Source: Macrostomum lignano (Eukaryota). Taken from it: 64,000 nucleotides of DNA. Below the pieces are notes generated by a model that saw only the letters and a program-made list of their open reading frames with translations, was not told the origin of the DNA and did not search any database. The DNA lies in the NCBI GenBank assembly GCA_002269645.1, contig NIVC01000100.1:310001-374000 (forward strand). The letters run 5' to 3'. The position numbers were made by a program, and so were the translations under genes. Within the stretch, counting starts at the first letter, position 1; every line of letters starts with the position of its first letter. This document shows, piece after piece, positions 16,760 to 57,028 of the stretch.

Positions 16760-16786
16760 CACAATGTAACACATGCAACATACACA

Positions 16787-29183: not shown

Positions 29184-30212
29184 ATGGCGACAGCGGCTTT
29201 ACACTCGCACCAGACTGGCGGCGGAGACCACGATCCCAATGAATTATTAGATAATGAAGATTTAGACTCGGATCTGTCTAGCGACGGAGAACGTTTGCCA
29301 GTTGTGCAGGGCACGCTGAGCAAGTGGACAAACTACATCACCGGATGGCAGAGTCGATTCTTTGTACTAAAAGACGGCACTTTGAGTTATTTTAAAAGTC
29401 CGGAAGAGTCCGCTTTCGGCTGTCGGGGCGCTATTTCTCTTAGCAGAGCGTTGGTCACTCCGCACACTTTAGACGAGAATAGATTCGACGTTTGCGTTGG
29501 CGAGCATATTTGGTATCTGCGCTGCGACAGTCGCGACTTGCGCACCACTTGGATACGCGCTTTAGAAAGTCATCGCACCTGTCAGGAGTCCGGCATCGGC
29601 TCCGAGTCCAGTTTAAAACGGCACAATAGCTTGTTAAGCCTAACATCTGGCACGCAGAGCATAGCTAGCCAAGGTAGTTTCCGTCGAGGCCACGGTGTTA
29701 AAGAGAAACTTGCCGAAATTGACACGTTTAGAGAGATGCTAATTAGACAGGTGGATACTTTGCAAGGCTACTTTGATTTATGCAGCCAATTAGCCGCCTC
29801 ATCTCCGGCTGCCGCGGTAAAAGCCGGTTCTATCGACATCGAAGACGATGTGGTAGTTAATGGCGCCGCTCGTGGCGACTCGTCGGGGCTTAAGACTGCC
29901 GAGGACGAAGTTAGCAACAATGCTGACGATGGCGACGATGAGGAGGACGAATACGAAGATCCTGCTGCCACTACGATCACCGCTGCCACTATGACAGCAT
30001 CGCAGTCAGCTGGCAGCGGCGGTGGTACTTCGCTATTCTCGTTTTTCAGTCGTCGAAGTGCCGCTCCCAGTGCCTCACCCGCTGCCACTGCCGCCGCCGC
30101 CACGGCGCCACCTCCAGCTAAATCCTTGGTGGATTACGACAGCTACATGAGGCTGTTGCGACAGCACGGCGGGCACGCTGTGGATTTCAAAGGCGAAGCT
30201 AACACTTTTCGT
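29184..30212 (+). CDS. CERT1: Ceramide transfer protein exon 1 (PH domain, serine-rich motif, coiled coil)
   Basis: GTLSKWTNYITGWQSRFFVLKDGTLSYFKS PH domain; SLKRHNSLLSLTS serine-rich motif; DFKGEANTFR then donor GTGAGA at 30213. Confidence 0.95.
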
Positions 30213-30249
30213 GTGAGAATGCTGAGAAATTCAAAATGTTTTTGGAGCC

Positions 30250-30620
30250 CAAGCTCCTTCCCTACCTCCTGTGTCCCTGCCCTTCTCCCTCCCTCCATAC
30301 CCACAGTGTCCCAGCCCTTTTACCTCCCTCCCTACCTTTTGTGTCCCAGCCCTTCTCCCTCCCTCCCCTACCCCCTGAGTCCCAGCCCTTTTACCTCCCC
30401 CCCCCCTATATCCTGTGTCCCAGCCCTTCTCCCTCCTTCCCTATCACCTGTGTCCCAGCCCTTTTACCTCCCTCCCTACCCTTTGTGTCCCAGTGTCCCA
30501 GCCCTTCTCCCTCCCTCTCTACCCCCCCCCCCTGTATCCCAGCCCTTCTACTTCCCTCCCTCCCTACCCCATGTGACCCCACTCTTCTCCCTCCCTACTC
30601 TTCAGCCTCTCCTCTACCCC
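30250..30620. repeat. C/T-rich intronic minisatellite (TGTCCCAGCCCTT...CTCCCTCCC)
   Basis: Repeated units inside CERT1 intron 1. Confidence 0.85.
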
Positions 30621-30641
30621 CGTCACGCGCTGCAATTTCAG

Positions 30642-31107
30642 GCAACCACAGCCGGCATAATTCATCAAATGTCCAGCTGCCTGGAGCTGATGACCCAACG
30701 CGAAGAGCAATGGAAGAAACGCCTTGATCGCGAAATGGAACGCCGCCGCAAAGTGGAAGATGTAGTTCGACAGCTTAGACAGAAGCTCGAACTAGCAGAG
30801 AAACGTGTTGGCGATCCCATGGGCCCAGATTTTGAAGAGGGCCCCTGCTGTCAACTTGATGAAGAAGAGTTTTTCGACGCAATCGACGCCCAATTAGACA
30901 AGATGGACATGGACGCCAGCAATATGAGCCGATTAAGACAGGCCCGACTGCCCAATCACAGCTTAGATCCAAACCATCCGCTCACTGATGAAATTATGCG
31001 CGTCTGCCAATCGCACTGGGACAATTGGGGCGCCTCGTGCGCCGGGATGGAACTATTAGAAAAAGATGGAGAATTGGCTGTGTATAGAAAGCAACTGGAA
31101 GAAGAGG
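30642..31107 (+). CDS. CERT1: CERT1 exon 2 (FFAT motif, start of START domain)
   Basis: ATTAGIIHQMSSCLELM; EEEFFDAID FFAT motif; acceptor TTTCAG at 30641; phase-1 donor GTGAGT at 31108. Confidence 0.95.
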
Positions 31108-31264
31108 GTGAGTGAAATTTAATTACTGAGGGGGTCTATTAATTTACTTATCTAGACCATTCTGACTGTTATTTACTGATTTCTCTACTAACAGTAGCTT
31201 AATGGTGCGCATATTATAAAATTGTACGATTCTCGCAAATTACAACTGCAACCTACCTACTAAC

Positions 31265-32430
31265 TAGAAACTACAAACTGCCTACAAACTTTAAGCTACA
31301 AACTGCATATAAACTATAAGCTACAAACTACCTATAAACTATAAGCTACAAACTACCTATAAACTATAAGCTACAAACTACCTACAAACTTTAAGCTACA
31401 AACTGCATATAAACTATAAGCTACAAACTACCTATATATAAACTATAAGCTACAAACTACCTATAAACTATAAGCTACAAACTACCTATAAACTATAAGC
31501 TACAAACTGCCTATAAACTATAAGCTACAAACTGCCTATAAAACTATAAGCTACAAACTGCCTATAAACTATAAGCTACAAACTACCTATAAACTATAAG
31601 CTACAAACTGCCTATAAACTATAAGCTACAAACTACCTATAAACTATAAGCTACAAACTACCTATAAACTATAAGCTACAAACTACCTATAAACTATAAG
31701 CTACAAACTACCTACAAACTTTAAGCTACAAACTGCATATAAACTATAAGCTACAAACTACCTATAAACTATAAGCTACAAACTACCTATAAACTATAAG
31801 CTACAAACTACCTATAAACTATAAGCTACAAACTACCTACAAACTTTAAGCTACAAACTGCATATAAACTATAAGCTACAAACTACCTATAAACTATAAG
31901 CTACAAACTACCTACAAACTTTAAGCTACAAACTGCATATAAACTATAAGCTACAAACTACCTATAAACTATAAGCTACAAACTGCCTATAAACTATAAG
32001 CTACAAACTACCTATAAACTATAAGCTACAAACTGCCTATAAACTATAAGCTACAAACTACCTATAAACTATAAGCTACAAACTGCCTATAAACTATAAG
32101 CTACAAACTGCATATAAACTATAAGCTACAAACTACCTATAAACTATAAGCTACAAACTACCTATAAACTATAAGCTACAAACTGCCTATAAACTATAAG
32201 CTACAAACTACCTATAAACTATAAGCTACAAACTGCATATAAACTATAAGCTACAAACTACCTATAAACTATAAGCTACAAACTACCTATAAACTATAAG
32301 CTACACACTACCTACAAACTTTAAGCTACAAACTGCATATAAACTATAAGCTACAAACTACCTATAAACTATAAGCTACAAACTACCTACAAACTTTAAG
32401 CTACAAACTGCGTATAAACTACAAGCTACC
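31265..32430. repeat. 25-bp intronic minisatellite (CCTATAAACTATAAGCTACAAACTA)
   Basis: About 46 tandem units. Confidence 0.97.
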
Positions 32431-33023
32431 AAACTACAAAAAACCTTTCCCTAATTAAATTTACAGCCAGTGGTATGTTAGTCAACAATTTTATTAAGTT
32501 GACTATTGAATTTTTTAACTGGCAAATTTTTACAGTGATGTAAATTAATCAGCGCATTAATTGTTTTCATAATGAAGCTTCTATTCTAAAGAGTAATTGC
32601 TCACTGTGTGAGTACCAGTAGTTTTTTTTCGCTTGCGGTTAATGCGTTCTAACACATTTCAGATTCTATACTTTGACTACGTTTGTTTAAATGGAGCGCT
32701 AAAAATTCGCTTATTTAAACCGAGACAGCAGTCTGGATTTTCCATTTCTTGCATTAAAAGTGAATTCACGCCACTAAAAAGGTCACGTGTACTTTTAGAG
32801 AACACGTGCAAAATATAATATTTACTTTAGAAAGTGCGTGTGCACTTCATAAAGTACGCGTGTACTTCGAAAGTGCGCATGTACTCTAAAAGTACCAGTA
32901 CATGTACTTTAATTATGTACACAATGTTTTAGCAGCTTCCGCCAAAGTACGCGTCTTTAATGTGCATCTGTACTTTTGTATCTAAAAAAATATTTATTCC
33001 TTTTATCCCTTTCATTTCCACAG

Positions 33024-33559
33024 GCATGATTATCGATCCAATATTGGCTACGTACACTGTCTCGGGCGTGTCAGCCAGAGAAGTGGCCGAATACTTCTGG
33101 GATTTGCACTACCGCCTTGACTGGGAGCACACTCTCGACTCCGCTCCAGTCGTAGTCGATACGTTAGCTGCGGACACTGTCCTGCTGCATCAAATCTATC
33201 GCCGGGTCTGGCCGACAGCTCAACGCGATGCGGTCTTTTGGTCGCACATTCGACACGACGAACGGCGCACAATGGTAGTGAATTATAGCACCGATTATAA
33301 GGCTCCGCCACTCATTAATAGTCGCCAGCGTATGCGATTGAATGTCAGCATGATCTGCGAGACCGAGCTGCCGCCCGAGCTGCCGGCGGACCGTCGGCAT
33401 ATTCGCTGCCGAATTCAGTACGCGGCTAACATTAATCCAGGCGGCTGGGCTCCCGCCACCGTCCTCAGGCAGGTGGCGAAACGGGAATATCCGAAATTTC
33501 TACGCCGTTTCACCGCCTATTGCATCGACAAGGTTAAGAATAGGCCTGTGCAGCTGTGA
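33024..33559 (+). CDS. CERT1: CERT1 exon 3 (START domain); spliced protein 676 aa
   Basis: GMIIDPILAT, RRVWPTAQRD, NINPGGWAPATVLRQVAKREYPKFLRRFT match the CERT START domain; acceptor CACAG at 33023. Confidence 0.95.
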
Positions 33560-38470: not shown

Positions 38471-39357
38471 TAAAAAAGGGGTTGGTTTATGGAATTCAAA
38501 ATATACGCTTGAACATATTTTTTTCTCTAAAGCCTGTTGTTGTTTAATTACTTTAAGTAAACTGTGTTGTTTTTAAAAGTATTTTTGCCTTCTGTCTTAA
38601 CTTTTTTACTTACACTTCTGAAACCGAATGCATGCCTGGCGGTTCTGATCCCTCACCTGCGTTGGTGATCGCAAAGCTCGGCGCTGCTCACTCCTCAGCC
38701 GCTCTTTTTCTCGAAGGACAACAATTTTTTAATTTTTGTCCTAGTGGTAACCCATTCGTGGAATTGCCCATAAGATAAATTTTTATTATTATTTAATGTC
38801 TATGTTGACAATGTTATATATAGAGTAGGCCCCTATTTTATATAAAGTTGCTTTAATTAATTCTAAATTGTATGCAGGAATGCCATAGATGTAAGCCAAA
38901 AATTTTCCTTTGTGTTATGTACACTTGGGTGTATGCTGATGTATGCTGAAAAATGACAAATACCCTTGTTGTACACTGGGAAATCCCAGTGTACATGTTG
39001 CCTCCCAAACTATGGCTTAATACTAACTCTTCTGTATGATTATATGAAGTACATACGAGGTGTATACTTATACTATTTTCTTAAGAGTCATGCATATCAA
39101 CTTTGCACGCCTAAGTTTATATGCAAAGCCAATGCATGCCTAAATTTTCAGGTATATACTTATATGATCTAGAGTATGGCCCAGTCATAATTTCTAATTT
39201 AGTTATGGGTTAAGTATAACTTTAGTATAAGACTGAGAGTTCTAGATTAAATTAAAATTTTTCTAAGGCTTCTAGATTCATTTTTTCACTATAACATCAA
39301 AGCTACTATTTTTGAAAATTGACAATTGAGCTTATCAGGCCCCTAAACTGCAATAAC

Positions 39358-42300
39358 ACTACTATATGAACCCGTATCCGTTGATTTTGGAGGTGGGGTG
39401 GGTGTCAACCCTCCTTGCCTCTCATTGGCTGGCGCCCCGATCACTAGGTGATCGATACCCGTATCGATATCGGCGCTCGGCACGCGCGCGCGCCGCAGGC
39501 GCGTGGCGCCAAGCGCCGCAGGCGCACCCTCCCGATATTAGATCCCAATAAATCAATCAGATCCCAAATCAATCAGATCCCAAGCGCACCCTCCAGAGCA
39601 GCAGGCGTCCATGCAGCAGGCGCCCCTCCCCGCCGCACGCGCCCTCCCCGACATGTATGCCGCAGGCACCCTCCCCGCCTCAGGCGCCCCTCCCGATATG
39701 TATGCGCACTCTCCCTATATGTACACCGATATGTATGCAGCAGGCGCCCCGAGTGTACACTCTCCCGATATGTGTGTACACCGATATGTAGTCATCGATA
39801 CGGGCCTCTTCCCCTCTCTCACCTACATCTCAACTAGCGAAATCGAACCCAGGTCGCGCCCATACTAGGACACTACACGGTTGTGGGGTATAGGGAGCGA
39901 GAAGTTTCAACCCTAACGCTGACGCAGCCCTGTACAATGAGCGTGTACGGGCAGAAAGGGGGGGTGGACAGAGAGACGGCCACTAGGTTATTATACTGTT
40001 GAAGCATAGAGAGCGAGAAGTTTTAACCCCGATGCTGACGCAGCCCTGTACACTGAGCGTGTACGGGCAGAGGGTGGGTGGAAAGAGATGTGAATAACAC
40101 AGCCTGCTGCAGGAGCCGGATAGAGAGGCGCATGCTAGGACAGAGAGGTAGTGTGAGTCACACACACTCCACAGAGAAAGCCATACAGAGGATAGAGAGC
40201 TCCCTCCCCAGTTGCAGGGGACAGAGAGGCAGGCAGGGTATGCAGGGGCATGCGAACCGTCAAGGGGCCACGCGAGGATAGAGTGGAGGAGCAGAGATGT
40301 GTTTGGACAGAGAGCCAGCCACGTGTGCGTAGTGTGAGGGAACAGAAACATATGGAGCAGGAGGGAGATAGGAAGCAAACGCGCAGGGTAAGGGAGCCAC
40401 ACAGGGCGGTACAGTGAGACACGGGCAGGGGTGGAGCCGTGCGTGGACAGAGCTGAACGGCACGGTCAGCTGCAGGAATAGGATGATAGAGAGGCGCGGA
40501 GGGGGACAGAGAGCAGTGTGCAGGGGTAGGCAGCCACGCAGGCTGGGGAACAGAGAGGCGCGTGTCAGCCAGTTGCAGCCCGGGACAGAGAAGTATGAAG
40601 GGGGGCCTGGGACAGAGTTCGAGCAAGGCACAGAGGTAGGGTCCTGTAGCTATGTATAGGCAGGGAGCCACGCGAGGGCAGGACAGGGGAGCAGACATGC
40701 AAGTTGCATGCAAGGCCAGAGAGGTGTGCGCGGAGGGAGACAGAGAGCAGTGTGTAGGGGTAGGTAACAGCAAACTTTAGTAGCGGCGCGTGCGGGGACG
40801 GAGAAACCAGTCAGAGCATACAGAGACGTTACAGAGAGGTACACAAGCAGAGACCAAAGCGAGCAGAGCACATGTGTAGGGACAGAGACGTGAGGGAGAA
40901 TCGACCAAAACACGCTATGTATTTTCAAAAGTTGGTTTTAGTGCAACATGTTTAATAGTGGGTAGTATAATAGTATGTACATAGTAGGTATAATAGTAGT
41001 AATAATAGTAAGCATATTAGCCCAAAAGGTAGACTAAAACAGGCTAAACTGTGTGTACGCATCCTCATCACCCCACAAGCCCCCTCTCCCGCCAGACTCA
41101 CTCTACCAAACCCTCCTGTATTGCTGCATGAAGGAAAATATAGTGTAAAAATACAGATCTTAACCGTCAGACCGCTGAAATCAGGGCACACTAGAGGGGG
41201 TTTCGGGGTCTGCATGCTCTATGTAAGCTGCTTGAGGAGGTTCCAAGGGCGTTGTGAGGGTTTCCATTATGTTTTGAAAAAAAAAACTAGGGGCTTAAAT
41301 ACAACGTTTTATTCAAAAGTAGGTTATTTTAATGAAATAGCTGACACAATCATTGTCGAGAGTAGAAATTTTTATAAGAAACCAGGCATTTTAGCAAAAA
41401 TAAACCTTCAAACCACATAAAATTGAATAAAAAGCAGACATTTTCAATTATAAACCGCAAGTATTTTAATAGAAAAGTAAGCAAACAAGGCACAAAACCA
41501 GCAAATTTTACCTTTTTATTTTAATGTTACTGATAAGGTAGAGAGTAGAAACTTGTGAGCTGTACGGAGTTAGAAAGTATTAACCATTATGTATCGTATG
41601 AATTATTAGTTCAGTACCAGCCATTGGTCAAGCGAGCATTTATGAAGTTATTACGAGTGATGAAGGGATAGAGAGCTATATACAGGAAGACAGTATCCTT
41701 CTAAACCACCACGAACAGATTGCTAATAGAGATAAGCTTTGTCTGTGTGCAGTATGAGTAAGCGAAGGCGGGGCAAATACTTTTCCACATGCCGGACAGA
41801 ACAGTATTGTGCTAGGATTTCTCTCGAAATCGCGGTACGTTACTAGTTTTTATCACACCATCCAGATGCGTCAACTAGTCAGCAGTAGTCATTTATATGT
41901 TATTAGAACTTACAAACCCAGGTCAAGTAAATATTACAAAGAGTATATTACGTACACACGCCAACTCCGAATACCAAGCCATACTAGTCTACTTGCAGTG
42001 CTCCTGGAGGGAAGGGACGGCGGGGTGTACATCCGGCAGGGTGGGCGTCCAGCGAGTGTACATCTGACAGGATGGGTGTTCAGCAAGTGTACATCTGACA
42101 GGGTGGGCGTTCAGCAAGTGTACCTTCAGCGTCGAGTAGGTGTACACCCGTCAGTGGGAACTCAGCCCCTCCCACCAATGTCGTGTGCATGCGGTTAGTC
42201 AGTATAGTGGTGGGGTAGACGGTGCAGGAAGGAAACCCAGATGCTGACGCTACCCTGTACAGCGAGCAACCAACCCTCCTGTAGCAGGAGGGGGACAGAG

Positions 42301-42429
42301 AGTGCGTGGAGGCAGTAGGAGATAGAGGACGCTACCCGGCATGTCGCAGCACGCGGCGCGGGACAGAGAGGCAGTGTGTAAGTCACCCCCGCGGAGGGAC
42401 AGAGAGCTACCCTGGCAGGAGGCGCGGGA
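39358..42429 (+). repeat. Left arm of the foldback element
   Basis: Reverse complement of the right arm; mirrored ORF pairs, e.g. 41809-42198(+) and 43179-43568(-). Confidence 0.97.
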
Positions 42430-42947
42430 CAGAGAGGCGGTGAATCACACCCCACGGAGAGAGCCGTACAACGAGCTTCCCCACCCGAGTCCGGTAAATA
42501 TTACAGAGTATTACGTGCACACGCCAGCCCTGAATACCAAGCCATACTAGTCTACCTGCAGTGCTCCCAGAGGGAAGGGATGGTCAGGAGTTACACACCA
42601 AGAATGCATTCATACAAAGAGTACACAACTCGAGCCCAGACACCAAGTCACAGTCTACTTACAGTAGAGATGGTAGATTAATAGCAAGATTATATTACAA
42701 TTAGACCTCCCTAGCACATGAGGAGTGAAATTCAATAATAATTGAATTCAATAATAATACAACATTTAGACGTAGTAATTTAATTACAAAATACCACTAA
42801 CACTGAGCCAACGAATTGTAGGTTACAAAGGAGTTGCCACTCATATGGAAAGCCAGTATAATGCAGGTGTATATTATTAAAACATAGACAAAAACGATGC
42901 AGACGTATATACACACTATTGATTTTGTACATGTACATTTCGGCATA

Positions 42948-45900
42948 TCCCGCGCCTCCTGCCAGGGTAGCTCTCTGTCCCTCCGCGGGGGTGACTTACA
43001 CACTGCCTCTCTGTCCCGCGCCGCGTGCTGCGACATGCCGGGTAGCGTCCTCTATCTCCTACTGCCTCCACGCACTCTCTGTCCCCCTCCTGCTACAGGA
43101 GGGTTGGTTGCTCGCTGTACAGGGTAGCGTCAGCATCTGGGTTTCCTTCCTGCACCGTCTACCCCACCACTATACTGACTAACCGCATGCACACGACATT
43201 GGTGGGAGGGGCTGAGTTCCCACTGACGGGTGTACACCTACTCGACGCTGAAGGTACACTTGCTGAACGCCCACCCTGTCAGATGTACACTTGCTGAACA
43301 CCCATCCTGTCAGATGTACACTCGCTGGACGCCCACCCTGCCGGATGTACACCCCGCCGTCCCTTCCCTCCAGGAGCACTGCAAGTAGACTAGTATGGCT
43401 TGGTATTCGGAGTTGGCGTGTGTACGTAATATACTCTTTGTAATATTTACTTGACCTGGGTTTGTAAGTTCTAATAACATATAAATGACTACTGCTGACT
43501 AGTTGACGCATCTGGATGGTGTGATAAAAACTAGTAACGTACCGCGATTTCGAGAGAAATCCTAGCACAATACTGTTCTGTCCGGCATGTGGAAAAGTAT
43601 TTGCCCCGCCTTCGCTTACTCATACTGCACACAGACAAAGCTTATCTCTATTAGCAATCTGTTCGTGGTGGTTCAGAAGGACACTGTCTTCCTGTATATA
43701 GCTCTCTATCCCTTCATCACTCGTAATAACTTCATAAATGCTCGCTTGACCAATGGCTGGTACTGAACTAATAATTCATACGATACATAATGGTTAATAC
43801 TTTCTAACTCCGTACAGCTCACAAGTTTCTACTCTCTACCTTATCAGTAACATTAAAATAAAAAGGTAAAATTTGCTGGTTTTGTGCCTTGTTTGCTTAC
43901 TTTTCTATTAAAATACTTGCGGTTTATAATTGAAAATGTCTGCTTTTTATTCAATTTTATGTGGTTTGAAGGTTTATTTTTGCTAAAATGCCTGGTTTCT
44001 TATAAAAATTTCTACTCTCGACAATGATTGTGTCAGCTATTTCATTAAAATAACCTACTTTTGAATAAAACGTTGTATTTAAGCCCTAGTTTTTTTTTTC
44101 AAAACATAATGGAAACCCTCACAACGCCCTTGGAACCTCCTCAAGCAGCTTACATAGAGCATGCAGACCCCGAAACCCCCTCTAGTGTGCCCTGATTTCA
44201 GCGGTCTGACGGTTAAGATCTGTATTTTTACACTATATTTTCCTTCATGCAGCAATACAGGAGGGTTTGGTAGAGTGAGTCTGGCGGGAGAGGGGGCTTG
44301 TGGGGTGATGAGGATGCGTACACACAGTTTAGCCTGTTTTAGTCTACCTTTTGGGCTAATATGCTTACTATTATTACTACTATTATACCTACTATGTACA
44401 TACTATTATACTACCCACTATTAAACATGTTGCACTAAAACCAACTTTTGAAAATACATAGCGTGTTTTGGTCGATTCTCCCTCACGTCTCTGTCCCTAC
44501 ACATGTGCTCTGCTCGCTTTGGTCTCTGCTTGTGTACCTCTCTGTAACGTCTCTGTATGCTCTGACTGGTTTCTCCGTCCCCGCACGCGCCGCTACTAAA
44601 GTTTGCTGTTACCTACCCCTACACACTGCTCTCTGTCTCCCTCCGCGCACACCTCTCTGGCCTTGCATGCAACTTGCATGTCTGCTCCCCTGTCCTGCCC
44701 TCGCGTGGCTCCCTGCCTATACATAGCTACAGGACCCTACCTCTGTGCCTTGCTCGGAACTCTGTCCCAGGCCCCCCTTCATACTTCTCTGTCCCGGGCT
44801 GCAACTGGCTGACACGCGCCTCTCTGTTCCCCAGCCTGCGTGGCTGCCTACCCCTGCACACTGCTCTCTGTCCCCCTCCGCGCCTCTCTATCATCCTATT
44901 CCTGCAGCTGACCGTGCCGTTCAGCTCTGTCCACGCACGGCTCCACCCCTGCCCGTGTCTCACTGTACCGCCCTGTGTGGCTCCCTTACCCTGCGCGTTT
45001 GCTTCCTATCTCCCTCCTGCTCCATATGTTTCTGTTCCCTCACACTACGCACACGTGGCTGGCTCTCTGTCCAAACACATCTCTGCTCCTCCACTCTATC
45101 CTCGCGTGGCCCCTTGACGGTTCGCATGCCCCTGCATACCCTGCCTGCCTCTCTGTCCCCTGCAACTGGGGAGGGAGCTCTCTATCCTCTGTATGGCTTT
45201 CTCTGTGGAGTGTGTGTGACTCACACTACCTCTCTGTCCTAGCATGCGCCTCTCTATCCGGCTCCTGCAGCAGGCTGTGTTATTCACATCTCTTTCCACC
45301 CACCCTCTGCCCGTACACGCTCAGTGTACAGGGCTGCGTCAGCATCGGGGTTAAAACTTCTCGCTCTCTATGCTTCAACAGTATAATAACCTAGTGGCCG
45401 TCTCTCTGTCCACCCCCCTTTCTGCCCGTACACGCTCATTGTACAGGGCTGCGTCAGCGTTAGGGTTGAAACTTCTCGCTCCCTATACCCCACAACCGTG
45501 TAGTGTCCTAGTATGGGCGCGACCTGGGTTCGATTTCGCTAGTTGAGATGTAGGTGAGAGAGGGGAAGAGGCCCGTATCGATGACTACATATCGGTGTAC
45601 ACACATATCGGGAGAGTGTACACTCGGGGCGCCTGCTGCATACATATCGGTGTACATATAGGGAGAGTGCGCATACATATCGGGAGGGGCGCCTGAGGCG
45701 GGGAGGGTGCCTGCGGCATACATGTCGGGGGAGGGCGCGTGCGGCGGGGAGGGGCGCCTGCTGCATGGACGCCTGCTGCTCTGGAGGGTGCGCTTGGGAT
45801 CTGATTGATTTGGGATCTGATTGATTTGGGATCTGATTGATTTGGGATCTGATTGATTTATTGGGATCTAATATCGGGAGGGTGCGCCTGCGGCGCTTGG

Positions 45901-46051
45901 CGCCACGCGCCTGCGGCGCGCGCGCGTGCCGAGCGCCGATATCGATACGGGTATCGATCACCTAGTGATCGGGGCGCCAGCCAATGAGAGGCGAGGAGGG
46001 TTGACACCCACCCCACCTCCAAAATCAACGGATACGGGTTCATATAGTAGT
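42948..46051 (-). repeat. Right arm of the foldback element
   Basis: Differs from the left arm by a few SNPs and two extra copies of a 16-bp unit (TGGGATCTGATTGATT). Confidence 0.97.
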
Positions 46052-46188
46052 AATAACAAGCTTTTCCAACTCTTGCTTTAAGTCTAGAGTGTCAGTTTTG
46101 ACTAATGCCAAGTGTATTTTAGTTTAAATTTAGAATTTAGAGTACATTGACAGTTAAACAAAATCAAATAGAATGTAAATAAACATGT

Positions 46189-48391
46189 TGATGTAACCGC
46201 CCTTGTCGCCGGTCCGCTCCGTAGAGAGACGAACGCATGACTAGAGGGGGCAATGACCGTAGGCTGCCTATGACCGGGCAATGGCCTGACGGACCTCCAG
46301 CACCAGACTGTCCCGCCCACATGATTGATAGCTTTGGTAGCGCTTCGTGACCAGAGGGCCAAGGACCCACATGGACCCCACCTGTAGCCAAGGTGCAATA
46401 GTTGGTCACTCGGTCATAGTATGACCGAGTGGCTGCCACCACTCTATGTGACCTGGCGCACCTGGATCTTTCTACCAGACCTCTCGAGGCTAGAGCCCCG
46501 CCTGGGATGGTTACCAGGAGATTTAGGCTAACAGGGGAGACACATGCAGCCGAGTACAGGGACTCTGCTTGGGGCATGATCGGGAACTCTGGGCTCAATC
46601 TGGAGGATTTCTCAGCAGGGGATCCTTTGTGGCTGTGAGCGAGGCTAACTTGCGACTTTGATTACTAAGAGTAGTATGAGGCGAACATGTACTGTCTATA
46701 GTTTAGATTGCTCAGGGCGAAGGGACGCGTCAGCATGGGGTTGCAACCTTCCTACTGCCATTCTGTGCCAAGACTCGCTAATCCCTCTACTGCACGCACA
46801 CGCGGCCCCGCAGCACGCACTCACAGGCGGGCTGTGCACGGGGAGAGGCCATTAGCTTACCCAAACTTCCTTATGCTTTGCCACCCCGGGAGAAAGGCTT
46901 AGCAAGCCATGAGAGAAATGATGGTGAAAGAGTAAATAATGATGGAGTTAGTTAATAGTTAATAATTAGGCCCTTAGGCGAATAATCAGGCAATTAGGCA
47001 GCTTCACTATTGAGTAAAATACAGCAAAAGGTTACGGTATCACAATTGGCTCAGCTCTCTAATCAGACAATGGAAAAATAGGCAAACCCCGGATAAGCAA
47101 GGCGATTAGAGCACAAATTAGTAATAGGAACTTACCGGCAGCTGCACAGAGAGAGAGAGAGGCGGAGTGACCGAGGGCGGCTGTAGGCTGCAGTCAGGCA
47201 GACGGTGAAGCGGCGATGCGCTGAAGCGACGAGGCGCTGATGTAGATCAGGCGATGCTGATGATGCTGGGCGGTATCAGACCGCTGGCCGATAGGCGAGC
47301 TCACTTGGGGAGCTAAGGATAACTTGGCGGTAACAGACCGCGGACCGGCAGGGATTCGTCTTATAGACGAATGGGTCAGAACTCAATCTGACAGCAAGTC
47401 CAAAGAAGGACGAGGAGAGGAAAAGTTGAGGATTCTCATGCCGAAATCGCTTCCTTTTATAAACCTCACAGCCGCCTCCTCAAGGTCGTTACCATGGCTC
47501 CCTCTCTCTGATTGGCTGCCGGCAGAATGACGTCAGAATGAGTCATGATGAGAAGCATGATACCGGCATAGCAACATGAGAAATCGGGAAATTGCGCAAT
47601 CCGGAGGTGGGGTGGGGGATAATTGGCGCAGCGGGTGGTCGCGAAAGTGTTGCGCAAGCAAACATTGAGAACAATAGGGCTGGGGTCGAGAACAAAGGAA
47701 TTGGAAATTGGGGATAATTGGAGAGAACTGAGAACAATGGAAAAGTAAACATTGGGGAAAAGGTGATAATTAGGTGCGAAAACGAGAACAAAAGAAAGAG
47801 AAAATCGGAGAAAATGTGATAATTGGTGGGGGTTGAGAGAACAAAAGAATCAAAAACGAGAACAATAGAAGCGGAGGTGGGGTGGGTGTCGCATGAGAAA
47901 TTTGGGAAGGAGAACAATGGCGTGAGAAAAGGTTGCGCAAGAGAGGGGGATGAGTCATCGATGAGTCACCGAGGGGGGGAAGGGGTCACACGACTTGCGT
48001 CACCGTTTGGGAGTTTTGGAGGGGATGGGGAGACGGTGAGCACACAAAATACTGTAAGTAGACACAGGGAAAGAGGGGACAGCGCAGGAAAAGAGTGCAG
48101 AGGGAGACAAAAAGAGGGGGGATAGGGAAAGTACAGGAAGAATAGGGCGAAAAACAGAAGAGATAGGGTAGAGGGGGAGGTACAGAGAGGGTAGGGAGCT
48201 CCGGAAAGGCAGGTGTGGCGGCAGGGGAGACGGAACCAAGGCAGCAGGAGGGGTGCAGCAGAGCGGGAGTCTCCAGGCCTGGTCGGAGACCTGGCCGAGT
48301 CTCGACGGCTCTGTGCAGGGGGTGCACAGGATAGGAGGCACTTTCAAAAAGTTCCCATGCCCTATCCCGCGACCAGAGCGTGGTTACATCA
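46189..48391 (-). repeat. 3' LTR (2203 bp)
   Basis: Differs from the 5' LTR by about 6-8 substitutions and 3 small indels that I could see. Confidence 0.97.
47455..47970 (-). promoter_or_regulatory. LTR promoter/enhancer: TATAAAA, CCAAT, CRE, AP-1, C/EBP sites and GAGAACAA repeats (also in the 5' LTR at ~58290-58810)
   Basis: TATA 47455-47461; ATTGG 47511; TGACGTCA 47528; TGAGTCA 47539, 47951, 47962; ATTGCGCAAT 47591; TTGCGCAA 47650, 47933. Confidence 0.7.
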
Positions 48392-48408
48392 TACCCCCAC
48401 TGCCTTTT
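48392..48408 (-). other. Polypurine tract AAAAGGCAGTGGGGGTA
   Basis: Directly abuts the 3' LTR on the element sense strand. Confidence 0.8.
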
Positions 48409-49446
48409 GTGATGGAACTGGTTCCGTCATCACCACTGCCCAACATGGAACCACACAGACGGGAGCAGGATCTCAACCAAACTGGAAACTACAGAATTAA
48501 CAAACCGCGAACGGGGAGTGGGGGAAAAGACGATATAATAGAGGAGATAGCAATAAATTCACTGAATGAAATACATAGGTTGAAGTACAATACAGAATTT
48601 CAAAAATTTCAACTGTTGCTGTGGCTAAAGTGGGAAGGGGGAAACACAGGCAGCGCAATAATAGGGAGAAAAATATCGGATTGTCAATAATAAATTATCA
48701 TAATTGGATAGAAGCGCAGCTGGGGGAGAGAGGAAACGGGGAAGGGTGAGGGAGGTAGGGAAAAAAAGAAGGGGTTGTTGCTAGCACACAGCCAAGGGCA
48801 GAGCCTCGGGGAGAATGACAATTACACCGGGGGGAAAATAGCGCAGTAAATTAATAAACTAATTTCGCCGGGAGTTCAACCGCACGGAGGCCTAGCATCC
48901 TCGAAGGCTCGGACCCCCCTTCAGCCAGTCAGGGAGCTTCGGGGCGATCGGTTGTAGGCTGGGAGGCGCCGCGCCGGGTGCTGGCCACTGTATAAAAGGC
49001 GCCACTGATGACGGGAGCCGGCTGCCTGCAATCTGCACCGAGTCGCAGTTCCTAACCAAGGCCCTCAGCGCGATCTTCCAAACTATACAACTACTCGGTA
49101 AGTCCCATCACCAATCTGATTTCTTTTCACCTATACGTTAAACGATATCTACCCACTTGCCATGCCTTTCATATTAAACTGAGCCAACTGTAGTAGTACA
49201 ATATGTCTTTTCTTACGGTAATAAGAGTGAGAGGCCAACACAGACTTATTTTTATGAATTTGAGTGACGCACAACAAATACTCATATATTATTAGTAAAG
49301 GTGGCATATTAGAAAACAAGTTATTATTAGAAAAATAGTAAAATATTATAAAATTAGGGGCATACACAGACACACACACAAGCCAAAGGGTGAGAATGCC
49401 ATCCGGGCCGGCCGGCAGGTGCCACTCCGCGGGGCGTGCAGCGGCC

Positions 49447-50799
49447 TCACTCGAGGTCGGCCTCGCGGTTGAGCTGATAGGGGCCATAGGCGGCGACTTG
49501 AGCCATGGCACGGGCCCATGCTTCCACATATCGCTGGGCGGCCGCCGCCGTCAAGACGACGCGGTGGCAGCTACTGGGCAGGATATCATTAGGCAAGACA
49601 CCCCTCAGCTGCGGCAGAGTGGGAATGCCTAAAGCTTGGCACTGCACCACGAACGCGGCGTTGCGCGCTTGCTGCAGACGAGTGAGCGTCGGGGCGGAGA
49701 GCGGCGGCTGGGCGATGGCGAAATATTGCATCGAGCCGCGCGGCACCTCAGCCAGGCCCGCGTAGCCAGGCTCCACGTCGCCCAGGGCCGCCAACACCCA
49801 GCCGCAGCGCCTGTTGAATTGACTCGACAGGATGGCCGCCCACGCCACCGTGGCAAATGGGGCGTAGAGCAGTGGCGCGGCTGCAGGGGCTGAGGCTGCG
49901 AGGATGCCATCATGGAGAATGAGGGTGTCTTCCCACTCGGCGCCTGCGCATAGGAAAGTCCACAGCAGGCCCGGCAGGTCCGCCGGCAACATTCCCCAGA
50001 GGCTGGCCATGCTGGTCAGGCCGAGCAGCAGCCGGGCGCGTTGCGTCGAGGAGAGCTGCCGGCTCATCAGCGAGGAGGCCGCACAGCTCACGACCACCTT
50101 TTTGTACACAGGACGCTCGTTAGGATTGAAAATGGTCTTGAGAGCCGCGCACGACGGTGGCCGGGCCGTTAGATGGGACGGCTCGTCCTCCACCACATGC
50201 CGCAGGAATTTGGAGGCCTGTCGCACGAGGTCGCTGATGGCGTACTTGTACGGATGCTGCGCCGCCACCTCCACGTACATCAGGAGCGTGCTGTCCACCA
50301 GACCTTGCAGGGCCGCCTTGGACAGGATAAGCAGGCAGGGCCTGTCCAGATTGTCCCGCATTTGTCGTTCTAGCGTTGAATGCCGATCCTCAGCCTGCAT
50401 GGGGCCATAGTAGGGCTCGGGCCCCACCCAGTGGATCAGATCTCTAGCTGTAGTCGAGAGTCCGCCAGCCGTTTGACCCCAATCTACTTCATCTCGTTGT
50501 AGGGCGATGTCGACACTCCGCCGGCTGCTGGGCAGGACGTCCCGCAGGCGGCCGGCAGCCTCGCTGAATTCGGCCACCACATCCGAGAGGTCGTCATCTT
50601 CGGTGCTGGCAGAGCTGTCTGTCTCGGCGTCGTCATCGAGAGGGGCGACCCGGGCGGCTGACGCTACCGGTGACGCGGGGTCATCTTCCGCCTCCTGGCT
50701 GCCGTCCCATGGCCGCTTCCGACTGACCGGACTGGCAGGCCGCTCTGACGGTGAGTCTGGGCGCAGCCGAATGCGATTGACGCTGGGTTTGTTGTCCAT
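49447..50799 (-). CDS. 450-aa orphan accessory ORF of the LTR element; N-terminal NLS-like RKRP and acidic tract
   Basis: Uninterrupted GC-rich ORF; TATAAGA at 50891-50897 and CCAAT at 50918 and 51005 upstream. No recognised domain, signal peptide or clear TM segment. Confidence 0.8.
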   Translation of the reverse strand: MDNKPSVNRIRLRPDSPSERPASPVSRKRPWDGSQEAEDDPASPVASAARVAPLDDDAETDSSASTEDDDLSDVVAEFSEAAGRLRDVLPSSRRSVDIALQRDEVDWGQTAGGLSTTARDLIHWVGPEPYYGPMQAEDRHSTLERQMRDNLDRPCLLILSKAALQGLVDSTLLMYVEVAAQHPYKYAISDLVRQASKFLRHVVEDEPSHLTARPPSCAALKTIFNPNERPVYKKVVVSCAASSLMSRQLSSTQRARLLLGLTSMASLWGMLPADLPGLLWTFLCAGAEWEDTLILHDGILAASAPAAAPLLYAPFATVAWAAILSSQFNRRCGWVLAALGDVEPGYAGLAEVPRGSMQYFAIAQPPLSAPTLTRLQQARNAAFVVQCQALGIPTLPQLRGVLPNDILPSSCHRVVLTAAAAQRYVEAWARAMAQVAAYGPYQLNREADLE

Positions 50800-51376
50800 A
50801 AATAGCCGAATAACTTTCCGGGCACTTGGCTGGTCGAATGGAGGAATTGTTTCTCAAATTGACGGTCTCTACTCCGGTAGGTGCGGGTCCTCTTATAACG
50901 TTGGAGGCTGACTCCTCATTGGTTGAGCACGTTGGGAGACACACAGGCTGAGGCCGGGGTCACCGTTGGCTTGGGACCGCTCTTTCCAGTCTCCGTGTGT
51001 GCTGATTGGCTGGTTCCGCCGCTCCCTGTGTTCCTCACCCTTGAGCAGGGGGCAGATCCGAGACCGCTTCCGTTCGCGCCCGCGGCGGATCCGTACTCCG
51101 GCCGACCGAGATCGCACTCCCATCTCACATACACACATTCAGATCAGGCACACCAGTTAATTTGGTTAGTAGGAGTAGCAGAAGGATTTGGGAGATTAGA
51201 CTCCAGAAGATGAATGATGAAGCGGCCCAACTCTTTTCCATTTCTTCCCTCAACGCCACACACACACGCAGCCCTCATTCACGTCTCCGAAACCCTCATA
51301 AACTTAATAGCCGAAAGAGTTTGAAAGAAGAATTAATCATTAATTTGACGAACTACCATAGCAGAGAAAGGGGAAA

Positions 51377-51612
51377 CTACCACCATCTTGATGCATTACT
51401 AAAGAGGAGAAAAAGAAAGAAGAATTGCCACCATTTTGGGAGGGGTTACTAGGGAAAACTGCCACCATTTGCACTTTCATCAGAGAAGAGAAAACGAAAG
51501 ACTACCACCATTTTGGGTGTACTGTTAAAAAAGAAGGCGGGGAGGAAAACTGCCACCACTTTGAGTGTTTTATTAAAGGGAGGGGGAGAAAAAAGCTACC
51601 ACTACTTGACCA
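51377..51612 (-). repeat. Array of six PBS/LTR-junction-like motifs (consensus CAAAATGGTGGCAG on the element strand)
   Basis: CT(G/A)CCACCAT(T/C)TTG-like copies at 51377, 51425, 51459, 51502, 51550 and 51596, matching 57018-57031. Confidence 0.75.
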
Positions 51613-51753
51613 CCTCGAGCCCAAGAGAGGGAGAAAGAATGAAGAAATCCCCAAGAAGGTCACTACCACACGCCGTAAAATCCCCATCTATCTACATCCT
51701 AACACCCGGCTAGTTCCCCACTCCTATTTCATCCCTTAAACTCTCGCTTTCAG

Positions 51754-52160
51754 GATTCCGGCCGTTAGTAGCTGAGCCCATCCTCGAAGAAGAGTCTGAT
51801 TACGAAGCGCCCGAGGACAGCCATTCGGAGCCAGACGCCCCCTCTGGTTTAGGGCCGGCCGCGCCATCAGGCAACGTCGGCGCCGCGGCTCCAGAGCCCT
51901 GCGACCGCCGAGCCGCCAGCGAAACAGCGTCCGGGGACGGTTGGCATCCGGCGCCACCGCCACTGTCAGCCCGCGCGCACTCTCAGCCGCCGGTCGCCGC
52001 GGTGGCGCCCGTGGCTGCCGCTCCACAGCCCTCGCCAGCCCCTGTGGTGGAGACCGACGGCTCCTGGCACTGGGTCGTGCTGGCGACGGCCCTGATAGCC
52101 GGTCTCACCATGCACTGGCTGCTGCTCTTGGAGCTGTTTCTGCGGCTTCCCAACTGCTGA
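51754..52160 (+). CDS. Antisense terminal exon encoding an acidic/Pro-Ala-rich segment and a C-terminal TM helix
   Basis: Acceptor CTCTCGCTTTCAG; 135 open codons ending ...GSWHWVVLATALIAGLTMHWLLLLELFLRLPNC*; AATAAA at 52268. Not in the ORF track because there is no early ATG. Confidence 0.5.
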
Positions 52161-52744
52161 TGCTAGATGCTCTAGCGCTAACTTTTCCTACTAATTCTAA
52201 GCTATCGGCTCTCATAACTAACTCCAATTACTGGTTACTCATTAAATCTATGCTTAGCCCACTCTAAAATAAACATTGCTCCCCATCTGCCTGATAAACT
52301 TAATTACATTAAATGTCCCCCCTATTGCCTCATCGAAACCAATTAAAGGTTTCCCAAAATCTGACTTTCACAAGGTGTGAACAAACACACGAAATCGGAC
52401 CTAAAGGTGCTAATTTCTACGGTCCCAGAATTCTATTGTCCCAGAAAATCTTGAACAGCGGGGCAGGACCTCCTGTGGGGCAGACCCAGAGAAATTATTC
52501 TAGTTTCCGAGATAATATTTACTGAAAGGGAATTAACGCATACCGTACGGGCCTAATTTTCGAGCTAAAATCTTGGAAATTTAAACAACACCAACGAGCA
52601 CGAGGTCACAACATACATTCGGATAATAGAGGGCATACGTAAATACGCGAAAAGCGGTTCCAACGGGGCAAAACGAGCAAAATTTCGACACGCGAATCGG
52701 GGGGGGGGGATTAAGCAATCACTGGCTAGCTACCAATCTGTCAC

Positions 52745-53269
52745 TCAGCGGGGGTCGAATGGGAGACTCACACCTAGCAAGTAAACCTTTTCTGTTCGAT
52801 AGTCTATGATAGCATGCGTACTGGCTAGAAAAGCACTACCCAGGAGGGAAACTGCTGCTGAATTGCCAACGACTAGAAAGAGGATTCTCACCTCTTCTAG
52901 CCCAATAACTGCTGTGGGGGTGGCCTGGCCTAGCATCTCTAATTCATTGCCCGTGTAGGACACGGCCTTCACACATGGGGGCTCCAAGGCCTCCACACTC
53001 TGTCCGGTAATTTTAGTAAAGTCTTTGACTGTTAGCAAAGACAGCGCACTGCCCCCATCCACCAGGAGGCGGGTGGGAACATTCTCAATTGGCAACTCTA
53101 CAACAATATCTCTCCCGCGTTGTCCTCTAGCTGGTCTTGGCTGATAGAAATCGGGTACCTTCTCAAATCTAAACTTCTTGCTGGGCGGACTTGGCAGGTT
53201 AATCTGGGCCCTAGAGAGGGAACGGGGCTGAGTTCGGGCCGGGCCATTCAGCCCTCCCACGGGTTTCCC
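52745..53269 (-). CDS. pro: Retropepsin-type protease ORF, -1 frame relative to gag, ending in a stop right after PR
   Basis: RLLVDGGSALSLL (D-G-G at the catalytic D-T/S-G position); SLLGSAFL second motif; overlaps the gag end. Confidence 0.85.
   Translation of the reverse strand, partial: GKPVGGLNGPARTQPRSLSRAQINLPSPPSKKFRFEKVPDFYQPRPARGQRGRDIVVELPIENVPTRLLVDGGSALSLLTVKDFTKITGQSVEALEPPCVKAVSYTGNELEMLGQATPTAVIGLEEVRILFLVVGNSAAVSLLGSAFLASTHAIIDYRTEKVYLLGVSLPFDPR
53225..53269 (-). promoter_or_regulatory. -1 ribosomal frameshift signal: G GGA AAC plus downstream GGGCTGA/TCAGCCC stem
   Basis: Slippery heptamer at 53263-53269 in the correct gag phase; 7-bp stem 53225-53231/53248-53254; possible pseudoknot via GGCCC/GGGCC. 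Confidence 0.75.
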
Positions 53270-54687
53270 GAACCCGGAGGCTCTTCAGGCGTGGGAGGAG
53301 GGGGCATCAGGGCTTGCGCGCGCAGCTGGGCGAGCCTCTCCTGCCTCTCCCTGGTAGCCTCGTCTAACATCTCCCTGCCCCAATCCTCTAAATCTTGCCT
53401 ATGGCGATCGGGTGGCGCACGAAGCTGCAACTGCTGCTGCTGCACACCCGGCGCCGGCGGCGTGGGCGCCTCCTGAATTGCAAGCGGCGGGGGCTGGGAT
53501 TGGCGCCAGTTGCTATTAGAGCCGCCCTGCCCCCGTCTCCAGTTCCTGTTGGGAGTGGCGGGGCGAGGGGGCCTCATCTGCTGGGGCAGCTGGGCAACAG
53601 ACTCTGCTGTCACCCTCATGGTTTCATTGAGCTGCACCAGCTGGTTGCGCAGGTCCTTTTGCGTTTGCTCTAGCGCGCCCAACCTCTCCTGCATCTCTGA
53701 TAGGCCGTCACCGTCCTCCTCCGTCTCGTCAGCTTCCTGGTTCACCATCCTGACCCACTTGCGAGGGGGCCTGGGCGGCTGCTGAGGTTGCAGACGGACT
53801 TCAGCGCGGGACTCAGACTTGGGTGGGCCACCACTATCCCATTTCCCAGCCAAGTCGGCGGCCTCTAACAGGGCTTGCTGCTGTTCTAGAACCTGCTCGA
53901 TCGTCTGCCAGCGTCGGCTCAACAGATCTTGTCTGACCTGGCGGGGGAGCCTGGCGTGTTCCAAATAGGTATACACGATCTCCTGTTCTCTCTGCTCACC
54001 CTGAATCTGAGGAAACATGGCCGTTATCTGAGATCTGATCATAGCGGCAAAAGCACTATGTGATTGGCCTGGTTTCTGACTCAGATTCTTCAGCTTATTT
54101 CTCTTAGCCAGGTCAGTGTTGGCCTCGCCTAACTGTTCTCCTAATCTCGCTACGAACTGCTCAAATGGCAATTGCCCGTCCAATCCTAAGGCTAGGTTCT
54201 GAAATTCACCTGGAAGGTGGGAGATAAGTACTTGCTTCCTAGCCTGATCTCCTACAGTTCTCTCTGCGTCCAGCTTGTAGACTATTCTCTCTACCCATTG
54301 CACAAAACAGTGTTCGCCGGGAGAGAACTTCTCTACGTAGATTTTCGGCCTCTGAGCCTCTTGGCCCATGTTCAGCTGGTTAAACGCATTGGCTATAGCA
54401 GCAACTAAGTCTCCTAGCTGCGGGACTGCCTGAGGAGGATTCTGGGCTGCGTCCGGGGGAGCAGCGGCGGCTGCTGCCTCACCCTGATTGGGAGCGGGAG
54501 CTGCTACTCCTTCATCTGGTTCCTCAACTACTACTGCTTCTGGAGGCTGAGGGACCTGGTTACCAGCGGCTGCGGCCATTGCGGCTGCGGGGGCGGCAAC
54601 TGCTGGGGTGTCAACGGCCGAGGGTGGTTGGCCAGGGGCGTCTGCGCACACAGCTTCTACGACCCTATCTCCACGCGCCCGTGACAT
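53248..54687 (-). CDS. gag: Gag (479 aa, Ty3/Gypsy-type capsid, no zinc knuckle)
   Basis: KIYVEKFSPGEHCFVQWVERI...LISHLPG and MHR-like LKNLSQKPGQSHSAFAAMI; coiled coil; position between PBS and protease. Confidence 0.85.
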   Translation of the reverse strand: MSRARGDRVVEAVCADAPGQPPSAVDTPAVAAPAAAMAAAAGNQVPQPPEAVVVEEPDEGVAAPAPNQGEAAAAAAPPDAAQNPPQAVPQLGDLVAAIANAFNQLNMGQEAQRPKIYVEKFSPGEHCFVQWVERIVYKLDAERTVGDQARKQVLISHLPGEFQNLALGLDGQLPFEQFVARLGEQLGEANTDLAKRNKLKNLSQKPGQSHSAFAAMIRSQITAMFPQIQGEQREQEIVYTYLEHARLPRQVRQDLLSRRWQTIEQVLEQQQALLEAADLAGKWDSGGPPKSESRAEVRLQPQQPPRPPRKWVRMVNQEADETEEDGDGLSEMQERLGALEQTQKDLRNQLVQLNETMRVTAESVAQLPQQMRPPRPATPNRNWRRGQGGSNSNWRQSQPPPLAIQEAPTPPAPGVQQQQLQLRAPPDRHRQDLEDWGREMLDEATRERQERLAQLRAQALMPPPPTPEEPPGSGNPWEG

Positions 54688-57007
54688 GTGAATGCCGGAT
54701 AGCTGGGGGAGTACCCACTACCGGGAAGGAAAAGAAAAGGAAACCGGGGCAACTACAGGTAAAAACCGAATAAGTTGACCCGAAACACACGCACTCACAC
54801 ACACAAATACAGACAAAACTCACACACTTGCGGCGTCGAAGAAAACAAATTGAAAAACGGGTGTCTCCACATAATTTCATTTAGGCAGTCCTAACGGCTT
54901 CACTCGGCAAAGCACACAAACTCAAACTGCGGCTACCACTACCAATTGTCTATGGCACATCCTGACAGGGAAAATTGGCTATTCAGAGAGACTTGACCTT
55001 CATTCTGCGGCCATGCTAGGGAACCCAAATGCCGACCGTAAACGGACTTACGGCACCTGTACAAATTCTCCCCTAGGGTTGCGCGCCGGACCCCATTTCC
55101 TTAAGAAAGCCACTACGAAGAAGCGTTGGCGCCTGGACCCAAAACTCAAGTGGCGGGAGCAATCCCCATGGAGGTCCTCCCACTTTATTGCCCTTGCACA
55201 ACCGGAAAACCGTCGGCGCCCAGAGGGGCTTCCACTCTCAGGACTACCAATCTTGTACACGCGGCTTCACAAAAGGTGGGAATCCAACTCCCCTACGTCT
55301 AGCAGAATCCACAAAAACCAAAATCTCCCCTTTCTGTTCAGAGCGAAGGCGCGCAGCGGGAGTCCAGACTAAACTCTCCCCGAAGTTTTCAGGTTAGGTG
55401 GATTACAAGCCTGAAACTCTCGCCCGCTTCCCTAAGATAAACAGACCTAAGTGAGTATCTTCCTGAAATGCTTGTCCCTCCGATACTCCACCTTTGCTGC
55501 AGCTCGAAATAGCATACTTGGGACCTTTATCTGATGGCGGAGAAAGTCCTACAGTTGTCAGCCTCTCCACTTTACTGTACTTGAACGCCCGGTTCTACCA
55601 GGAGACAGCGGTACCTCCATCTAGGTTATTCCAAGTTGCCAGAGACGTCAACCCGTCTTATTGACCTTGCGGGGCACTGGGGTGGCACTCAATGTACCGG
55701 GGCCTTACATTAGGGGACTGCATGCAACCCTGCGTCTAAGCGCTTAGTGGGCTGCAGTGGCCAGAGGGGAAAGAGTTGCGCAATAGCGCCTTCCTGGGCC
55801 AGGCTGACAAGTCGGGCAGGAGCGCCGTTCTACCGGGTCGGGCTGATTGGCACACCCACCTCCCCTATCAGACTGACGGCAGGGGAAGAAATTACTAAAG
55901 GAGGAGAATGCAGCAGGAAAAATTACGAGATCACTGGGGACCACCAGACTTCCAGTACACCATTCCAATACTCACTGAACTCCACTACCAATAGGAGACT
56001 ATGGGATCTACTATTTCCAGCCACTACACCAGCCCAAATGCAACCAAAGCAGTTACTACCGGGTCTGCAATGCAGTGGGGAGAGCCAGCAGACACGTTGG
56101 GATCGAATCCCAGCCATAAGGGCACCAGGGGTTACCGCAGAATTCAGGTCCGGGCTGATCGCAGGTATTCCATAGGAGGTGACACTTTTTTAGCCCGAGA
56201 TTTTTGAGTCACACTAATACCCTACAGAGATACAATCACACCGCTATTCCCATTCCTGCGAGACTTTGATATCTCCCAATGTTTCCAAGGCCATGACTAC
56301 TGCTTCCCTTACTTTGCATATATAGCGAATTCTCCATAGCCCTTGATAGCTGTTCATTCTAATGGACAAACAAAACACGCTCCGGTCTCTACGCATTTCT
56401 AGGATTAACTGTTACACTCCCCCGAGTAAAAGAAAGAGGTAGGACAATGGAAAGAAATGCTTTGCTTCCAGCTTCCCTGTGCTTGCGTGATGAGGCTTCC
56501 GTACCTGGCTGGCTGTCCACCTCAACACTCACACAGTTCCGCTGTAGGCTAGGCGAGAGAAAGAAAGGGAGGGGAAATAAATCATATTACCGTGGAATAG
56601 AAAGTGAGTCCGGAAATTCACTTTCGCAGTTCTTCACACACTCCGTTACCAGGTAGCTATTCTGATTGTAATCAAATCCGCTCGTCTACCACTTCACACT
56701 TGCTAGCGCTGAAACTCATCGGCTAAATTAATTTTAAATTGAATCAGGGGCTTTTTGCGAATGAATGAATTTTGAACTTGAATGAATTGAATGAATTCGC
56801 AGCCCGAAAAATTTGAAAAATTACATTAATATTTTTGGATTTTTGTTGCCTCACGCCATGGGAGAAGAGAATGACGCTCGGCGATTTTTATAATTGGTAG
56901 ATCTAGACATGGCACACTTTGCGCTTCGGCCACCATTCTGAGGGATGCCACAGGTGCGCTTGTCACATCTAAACCACCAGTCCGAAACTCAGCGCTGTTT
57001 GCACCAG

Positions 57008-57025
57008 ATCCCACCGCTGCCACCA
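57008..57025 (-). other. Primer-binding site TGGTGGCAGCGGTGGGAT, complementary to the 3' end of tRNA-Leu
   Basis: 18-nt match to ...ATCCCACCGCTGCCA-CCA (metazoan tRNA-Leu AAG/TAG type), 3 nt inside the 5' LTR boundary. Confidence 0.9.
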
Positions 57026-57028
57026 TTT

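Follow-up and report, generated by a model that had tools for sequence, protein, structure and literature searches.

Polinton/Maverick (adintovirus) elements are recognized by a defining set of genes, namely pPolB, a retroviral-like integrase and an ATPase, a protease and capsids. Intact Mavericks of vertebrates carry terminal inverted repeats (TIRs), target-site duplications (TSDs) of 6 bp and tandem end motifs, (AGT)2, (AG)3 or (AC)3A, which the authors of the survey tie to jump-back priming in protein-primed replication (PMC8097293). TIRs of 46-1,447 bp are reported in that survey, and TIRs of 100-1,500 bp within a total of 13-25 kb are given elsewhere for Polintons (PMC10748475). In addition, Polinton TIRs may reach inward about 2 kb, with genes inside, and Polintons without polB are apparently still mobile (bioRxiv 10.1101/2025.02.07.637071). 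This report concerns a stretch of 64,000 nucleotides from the flatworm Macrostomum lignano (GenBank assembly GCA_002269645.1, contig NIVC01000100.1, positions 310,001 to 374,000), hereafter the window, and in particular a near-palindrome of 6,694 bp at 39358-46051, numbered from the first letter of the window. The near-palindrome is a genuine foldback insertion, young and non-autonomous, and the signature at its ends is unusual. It shares with the Polintons/Mavericks the 6-bp TSD, long near-identical TIRs and a short tandem end motif beginning with A; it differs from them in being gene-free, in its length of 6.7 kb, in arms of 3.07 kb and in its (ACT)2 end. Our best single guess is that its origin was of the Polinton type, a reading suggested by these signatures of the ends.

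Comparison of the window with itself by BLAST gave a single inverted match, 39358-42429 against 46051-42948, with 98.7% identity over 3,106 columns. The left arm (39358-42429, plus strand) is non-coding and has 3,072 bp, the right arm (42948-46051, minus strand) is its inverted copy of 3,104 bp, and the spacer between them (42430-42947, plus strand) has 518 bp. By self-comparison and boundary trials, the ends were placed at (ACT)2, 39358-39363 (also by 22-mer count), and (AGT)2, 46046-46051, and a perfect AATAAC stands directly outside both of them, at 39352-39357 and 46052-46057 (all on the plus strand); a 6-mer would match in the left flank by chance with a frequency of 5e-4. A preliminary description of the locus had given the same arms, spacer, TSD and ends, all of which are borne out. 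The whole unit of 6,694 bp entered intergenic, AT-rich DNA as a single piece, and the duplication shows that the cut there was staggered by 6 bp. When 81 combinations of boundaries were compared for symmetry, complementarity of the ends and match of the duplication, only the 6-bp reading was free of flaws in all three respects in the one copy at hand. Because an A follows the duplication on both sides, a ladder of readings of 4, 5, 7 and 8 bp also arises, and for these it must be supposed either that a terminal base is mutated, lost or unpaired or that the duplication contains a mismatch.

The terminal 22-mer has two matches in the window, both at the ends of the element, where none is expected by chance. 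Within the window no second copy was found, nothing clearly related to the terminal 120 bp was seen, and an empty-site paralogue is lacking (best score 42 against a shuffled maximum of 46). The same 22-mer occurs in 0 of 185,579 prokaryotic genomes, a result of little weight for an animal element. The first 150 nt fold at -32 kcal/mol compared with -24 +/- 3 in mononucleotide shuffles, and this DNA fold places two small segments capable of forming stem-loops near the terminus (39390-39470).

The two arms differ by three substitutions, all of them transitions (0.1% per site), by four single-base indels, each a change in the run length of C or G, and by 32 bp in length, which comes from a 16-mer array with 2.1 copies in the left arm (39550-39583) and 4.1 copies in the right arm (45794-45859). 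The insertion is suggested to be recent, because the divergence of the arms is 0.1%, compared with 0.32% for the neighbouring pair of long terminal repeats (LTRs), and the duplication is intact. The arm differences had previously been taken to exclude a read folded back on itself; the differences are confirmed, but half of them resemble long-read consensus errors, and since single-base changes of run length mimic such errors they cannot alone exclude an artefact. An assembly artefact, in which a fold-back read or the collapse of a longer element made the palindrome or shortened its interior, is very improbable. Those run-length changes (4/8 of the arm differences) would agree with it, as would a 99.9% identical 3.8-kb tandem duplication in the same window. 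The stronger evidence is on the other side: the flanks are not mirrored and carry the direct 6-bp duplication, a 32-bp difference in the copies of a tandem unit separates the arms, as do the three transitions, and the 518 bp of the spacer resemble the rest of the element in sequence. Moreover, a collapse may change the interior but cannot generate the ends.

The left half of the element is made of direct repeats, all in one orientation. Close to the terminus lies a subterminal zone rich in GC and CpG (39433-39800; this and the following intervals are on the plus strand), which contains short direct repeats of a degenerate kind, the 16-mer array among them, and further inward lie two copies, 88% identical, of a module A of about 85 bp (39880-40088), of which a third, partial copy is found at 42207-42267. 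The motif GGA(C/T)AGAG is present in 17 copies in the left half, all in one orientation with 0 on the other strand, and the 57 kb of the window that lie outside hold three; the 8-mer count is 13, compared with a shuffle maximum of 2. A first array (39966-40887) holds 12 of the 17 copies and a second array extends over 42293-42434, its last copy (42427-42434) spanning the boundary between arm and spacer and being cut in the right arm. Between the arrays are an AT-rich, mostly non-repetitive arm core without a protein match (40900-41900) and a block at 41916-42123, which consists of a module C (41916-42020) and, after it, a 31-bp tandem array (42025-42123).

Over its first 250 bp, approximately, the spacer extends the modules of the left arm in left-arm orientation, including a second copy of the 105-bp module C (42483-42583, 84% identical), and the remainder is AT-rich and unique. 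Compared with the left arm in direct orientation, spacer tiles 1-3 reached z values of 25, 36 and 11, whereas in inverted orientation 0/7 tiles rose above z 1.0. Complementarity ends at the inner junction of spacer and right arm (42947/42948), and the right arm breaks off within a motif copy that is completed on the left side. Because the spacer continues the modules and the right arm ends in the middle of a motif, the inner arm boundary is a rearrangement breakpoint and not a natural TIR end. The left arm and the spacer are one continuous end of 3.6 kb, which the right arm repeats in inverted and truncated form; the TIR of the parent therefore need not have been 3.07 kb long. The former view that the element had been reduced almost entirely to TIR is corrected in this respect. 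A copy-back template switch and a one-sided deletion would leave an identical layout, between which a single copy cannot discriminate. The 3-kb hairpin that had been predicted for single-stranded DNA or RNA would follow trivially from the sequence; its folding was computed for the inner 778 nt alone. A 9-bp match between the end of the spacer and the terminus proved to be at about chance level and was set aside.

Within the limits of the searches made, the element encodes nothing, in agreement with the earlier remark that it contains no transposase, polymerase or integrase; no protein or RNA gene was detected in it. As the element lacks coding capacity, the enzymes that move it must act in trans. 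Word-based searches gave no homologue of a 51-aa frame among longer targets or of a 213-aa frame among proteins of similar length, and the best score of a 148-aa frame in the ESM Atlas (0.79) is at chance level. Open reading frames (ORFs) beginning with ATG are not longer in the element than in shuffles. In a codon-usage test, itself a weak one, z values of at least 2.3 were reached by 13/17 known coding tiles, 2/9 intergenic tiles and 1/11 element tiles, and this sole element tile holds seven stops. Rfam gave two chance matches at E 1.9 and none at the gathering threshold, and ARAGORN found nothing. The segment 41602-41754 was considered as a captured exon, the two arm substitutions there being conservative and silent in its frame, and was rejected since homologue search, phmmer and codon usage lent it no support.

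A young, gene-free, non-autonomous derivative of the Polinton/Maverick type, moved in trans, is the modestly favoured explanation. Such a helper-dependent derivative is preferred because the 6-bp TSD occurs together with a tandem (ACT)2 whose first base is A, and because few groups insert at a cut staggered by 6 bp and the others considered, IS3EU/GingerRoot and Ginger2, do not agree with it in their ends. The (ACT)2 end is a trinucleotide pair like the Maverick (AGT)2 and begins with AC like the Maverick (AC)3A (PMC8097293), and tandems of the Maverick type (XYZXYZ or XYXYXY) make up 3-4% of 6-mers by chance (3.6%), or 1.5% if A is required first. The preliminary description had likewise proposed a non-autonomous Polinton-like derivative: its view of a non-autonomous insertion flanked by a duplication of 6 bp is upheld, whereas the Polinton origin is drawn from the end signatures, no remnant of pPolB, integrase, ATPase or capsid having been found. 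Its wording of complementary-sense termini was misleading, because elements with inverted ends read alike from either side; ACTACT is a different end motif and not a flipped AGTAGT.

The element most likely functions as a Polinton passenger. An ancestor may have given rise to it through copy-back, in which the template is switched while strand-displacement copying proceeds, or, alternatively, through a deletion that took out part of one long TIR together with the interior. The protein-primed polymerase of a helper would start at the (ACT)2 end by jump-back, and the displaced strand would fold as a panhandle, by which the double-stranded origin would be re-created and the arms kept alike. The retroviral-like integrase of the helper would then insert the product, giving the 6-bp duplication. 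Copy-back (snap-back) defective genomes of viruses contain one end twice, inverted, around a unique loop with a sharp breakpoint. The element shares this layout and differs in being integrated in a chromosome with a TSD, and one-sided deletion explains the layout equally well. It is possible rather than probable that the element is a defective copy-back genome which became integrated and which stems from a Polinton lineage of flatworms whose (ACT)2 end type is undescribed, that is, a gene-free near-palindromic satellite replicated and integrated in trans. In the element name Polinton-1N1_DR, N1 denotes non-autonomous. This named element exists (PMC9341505), and Tlr1 has been viewed as non-autonomous polintons (PMC5499653).

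A number of results weigh against the Polinton origin. By the defining gene test the element is not a Polinton: no such gene was detected, and although the TSD agrees, the arms (3,072 and 3,104 bp) and the total length (6,694 bp) fall outside the Polinton ranges. Pfam gave nothing better than E 0.3 for any of the six read-through frames of 39358-42947. Of the stop-to-stop frames, 45 have at least 45 aa, and the best E among the 29 compared with Pfam and PHROGs was 0.02; a phmmer search of 1.84 billion proteins had 0 hits for one read-through frame of 41353-42024, in the core. No part of the element has been linked in sequence to a Polinton. The (ACT)2 end matches none of the three end motifs of PMC8097293, a survey limited to vertebrates, and in the supplement of that paper ACTACT is the 3' motif in 14/14 of the matches listed, out of 712 occurrences. 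Arms of 3.07 kb and a gene-free end of 3.6 kb exceed the TIRs reported. Furthermore, oriented motif arrays in long arms also typify cut-and-paste foldbacks such as Galileo, and the analysis covers one copy of the element. A full-text literature search, which includes few subscription papers, found nothing placing Polintons in Macrostomum (0 mentions in the available text of PMC8502044). The same kind of search for ACTACT with Polinton gave no title on animal Polinton end motifs, and a term search of the available supplement of PMC10748475 found neither ACTACT nor Macrostomum. A supposed link between the PALTTTAAA palindromes of Caenorhabditis elegans and Polintons had no support in the parts of the literature searched and was dropped.

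Foldbacks of the FB/MULE type have 9-bp TSDs, which are not seen in this element. Galileo of the P superfamily and other foldbacks resemble it in consisting mostly of TIR with a short spacer, in their internal direct repeats and in arms extended inward, and Galileo copies made of TIRs and spacer, with TIRs lengthened by tandem repeats or internal sequence, have been described (PMC4168063). Accordingly, the element could be a non-autonomous foldback copy of an unclassified cut-and-paste DDE family with 6-bp TSDs and AC...GT ends, an origin that we regard as possible rather than probable. The GGA(C/T)AGAG arrays would then be putative transposase-binding sites, and the arms would have been lengthened by gap repair and recruitment of internal sequence, as in Galileo. 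The 17 copies in one orientation, with none on the opposite strand and an 8-mer count far above the shuffle maximum, speak for such a family, as does the failure to find a Polinton gene remnant with Pfam in six read-through frames. However, the arrays start 600 bp inside and not at the end, and the tandem end motif is left as a coincidence of 1.5-3.6%. The TSDs of Galileo, moreover, are 7-8 bp (PMC4168063), while here the 7-bp reading is asymmetric, the 8-bp reading is mismatched and no transposase remnant was found. IS3EU/GingerRoot and Ginger2 do share a 6-bp TSD with TIRs, but these known cut-and-paste groups end in TA..TA or TG..CA (PMC10045372, PMC6839031), and GingerRoot TIRs have 100-150 bp, in contrast to AC..GT and about 3 kb here; when the boundary of the element was trimmed to a TA end, no duplication of at least 3 bp was present at that position. 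Conceivably the element is the first member to be seen of an unclassified superfamily with 6-bp TSDs and AC...GT ends.

Two further explanations concern the reading of the ends and the enzymology. Elements of the CACTA, Chapaev and Transib types have CAC...GTG termini and TSDs of 2-5 bp. If the boundary were off by one base, the element might belong to them or to a group with 7-8-bp TSDs, which is improbable. In its favour, the left end starts with CACTA once the last base of its duplication is counted in, the duplication then being 4 bp (ATAA) or 5 bp (AATAA), a 7-bp asymmetric and an 8-bp reading with one mismatch can also be made, and single-base indels do occur in the arms. Nevertheless, the right end lacks the terminal G that would match a left end read as CACTA, and each shift needs a changed, lost or unpaired base at the terminus or duplication despite an arm divergence of 0.1%, whereas the 6-bp reading needs none. 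A retroelement product is the least probable of all. Here a single staggered cut would have primed two 5'-truncated copies, one on each of its opposite strands, which were then joined, as in a Penelope-like inverted pLTR or twin insertion, or the element would be DIRS-like with inverted ends. The geometry fits two unequal inverted copies with a common outer end, but Pfam detected no remnant of a reverse transcriptase (RT) or endonuclease in six read-through frames. Penelope-like and retrozyme elements are marked by an RT/endonuclease or a hammerhead ribozyme; no hammerhead core pattern is present on either strand here, the ends have no A-tail, and Rfam gave no match. Inverted pLTRs and the inverted terminal repeats of DIRS are known, but DIRS elements are described as lacking TSDs and having an internal complementary region (PMC8969392), whereas here a TSD is present and the spacer is not complementary to the left arm (0/7 tiles).

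The element begins 5.8 kb beyond the end of a host gene for a ceramide transfer protein (CERT-like; 29175-33559), in AT-rich DNA with a GC content of 0.33 on the left and 0.27 on the right, and Pfam gave no match in six frames of the interval between the two. Minisatellites fill the introns of this gene. Its START-domain exon (33023-33556) matches CERT proteins, with 69-70% identity to Macrostomum lignano proteins and at most 52% to other near-full-length matches (among the best 120 of 1,358), which marks the host as a Macrostomum-like flatworm, and an upstream PH-domain exon was recognized by eye. On the right, starting 137 bp from the element, lies a Gypsy-like LTR retrotransposon (46189-59226) with 2.2-kb LTRs (99.7% identical by substitutions), an ATGT target duplication and gag-like and protease-like ORFs on the minus strand. 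Its 468-aa ORF (49447-50853, minus strand) has no Pfam match, and it is probably non-autonomous because neither RT nor integrase was detected in its six read-through frames. An older Gypsy-type element (6201-10778) has LTR-like direct repeats of about 80% identity and fragments of RT (E 1e-15) and integrase (E 2e-13). The 3.8-kb tandem duplication (12968-20579), whose copies differ by one substitution and two small gaps, is either a very recent duplication or an assembly artefact; a short hairpin-like inverted repeat (20578-20636) stands immediately past its end. It is followed at 20685-21454 by a small foldback, or MITE-like, element, in which inverted arms made up of 2.8 and 4.0 copies of a 69-bp unit enclose an AT-rich centre.

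Gene-free TIR derivatives are known as such; this one is new in ending with (ACT)2, in the very great length of its arms and in a layout that includes a breakpoint. The replication of Polintons has so far been inferred mainly in silico (PMC10748475). If the copy-back Polinton origin is true, the element would be a chromosomal fossil of the proposed strand-displacement and panhandle replication, and the sequence required in cis by a helper would be defined by it; should the partner be an ordinary transposase, the element would be one more unclassified foldback element in the genus Macrostomum, the repeats of which have not been catalogued in detail (PMC10468722). In addition, a perfect inverted repeat of 3 kb could give rise to double-stranded RNA or promote rearrangement, and Polinton TIRs have promoted rearrangement at the eri-6/7 locus of Caenorhabditis elegans (bioRxiv 10.1101/2024.01.15.575659). 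Because the copy is young and gene-free and its ends are intact, its terminal 200 bp can serve as a probe for the autonomous partner, for the family, for a fourth end motif and for the spread in trans of near-palindromic defective elements.

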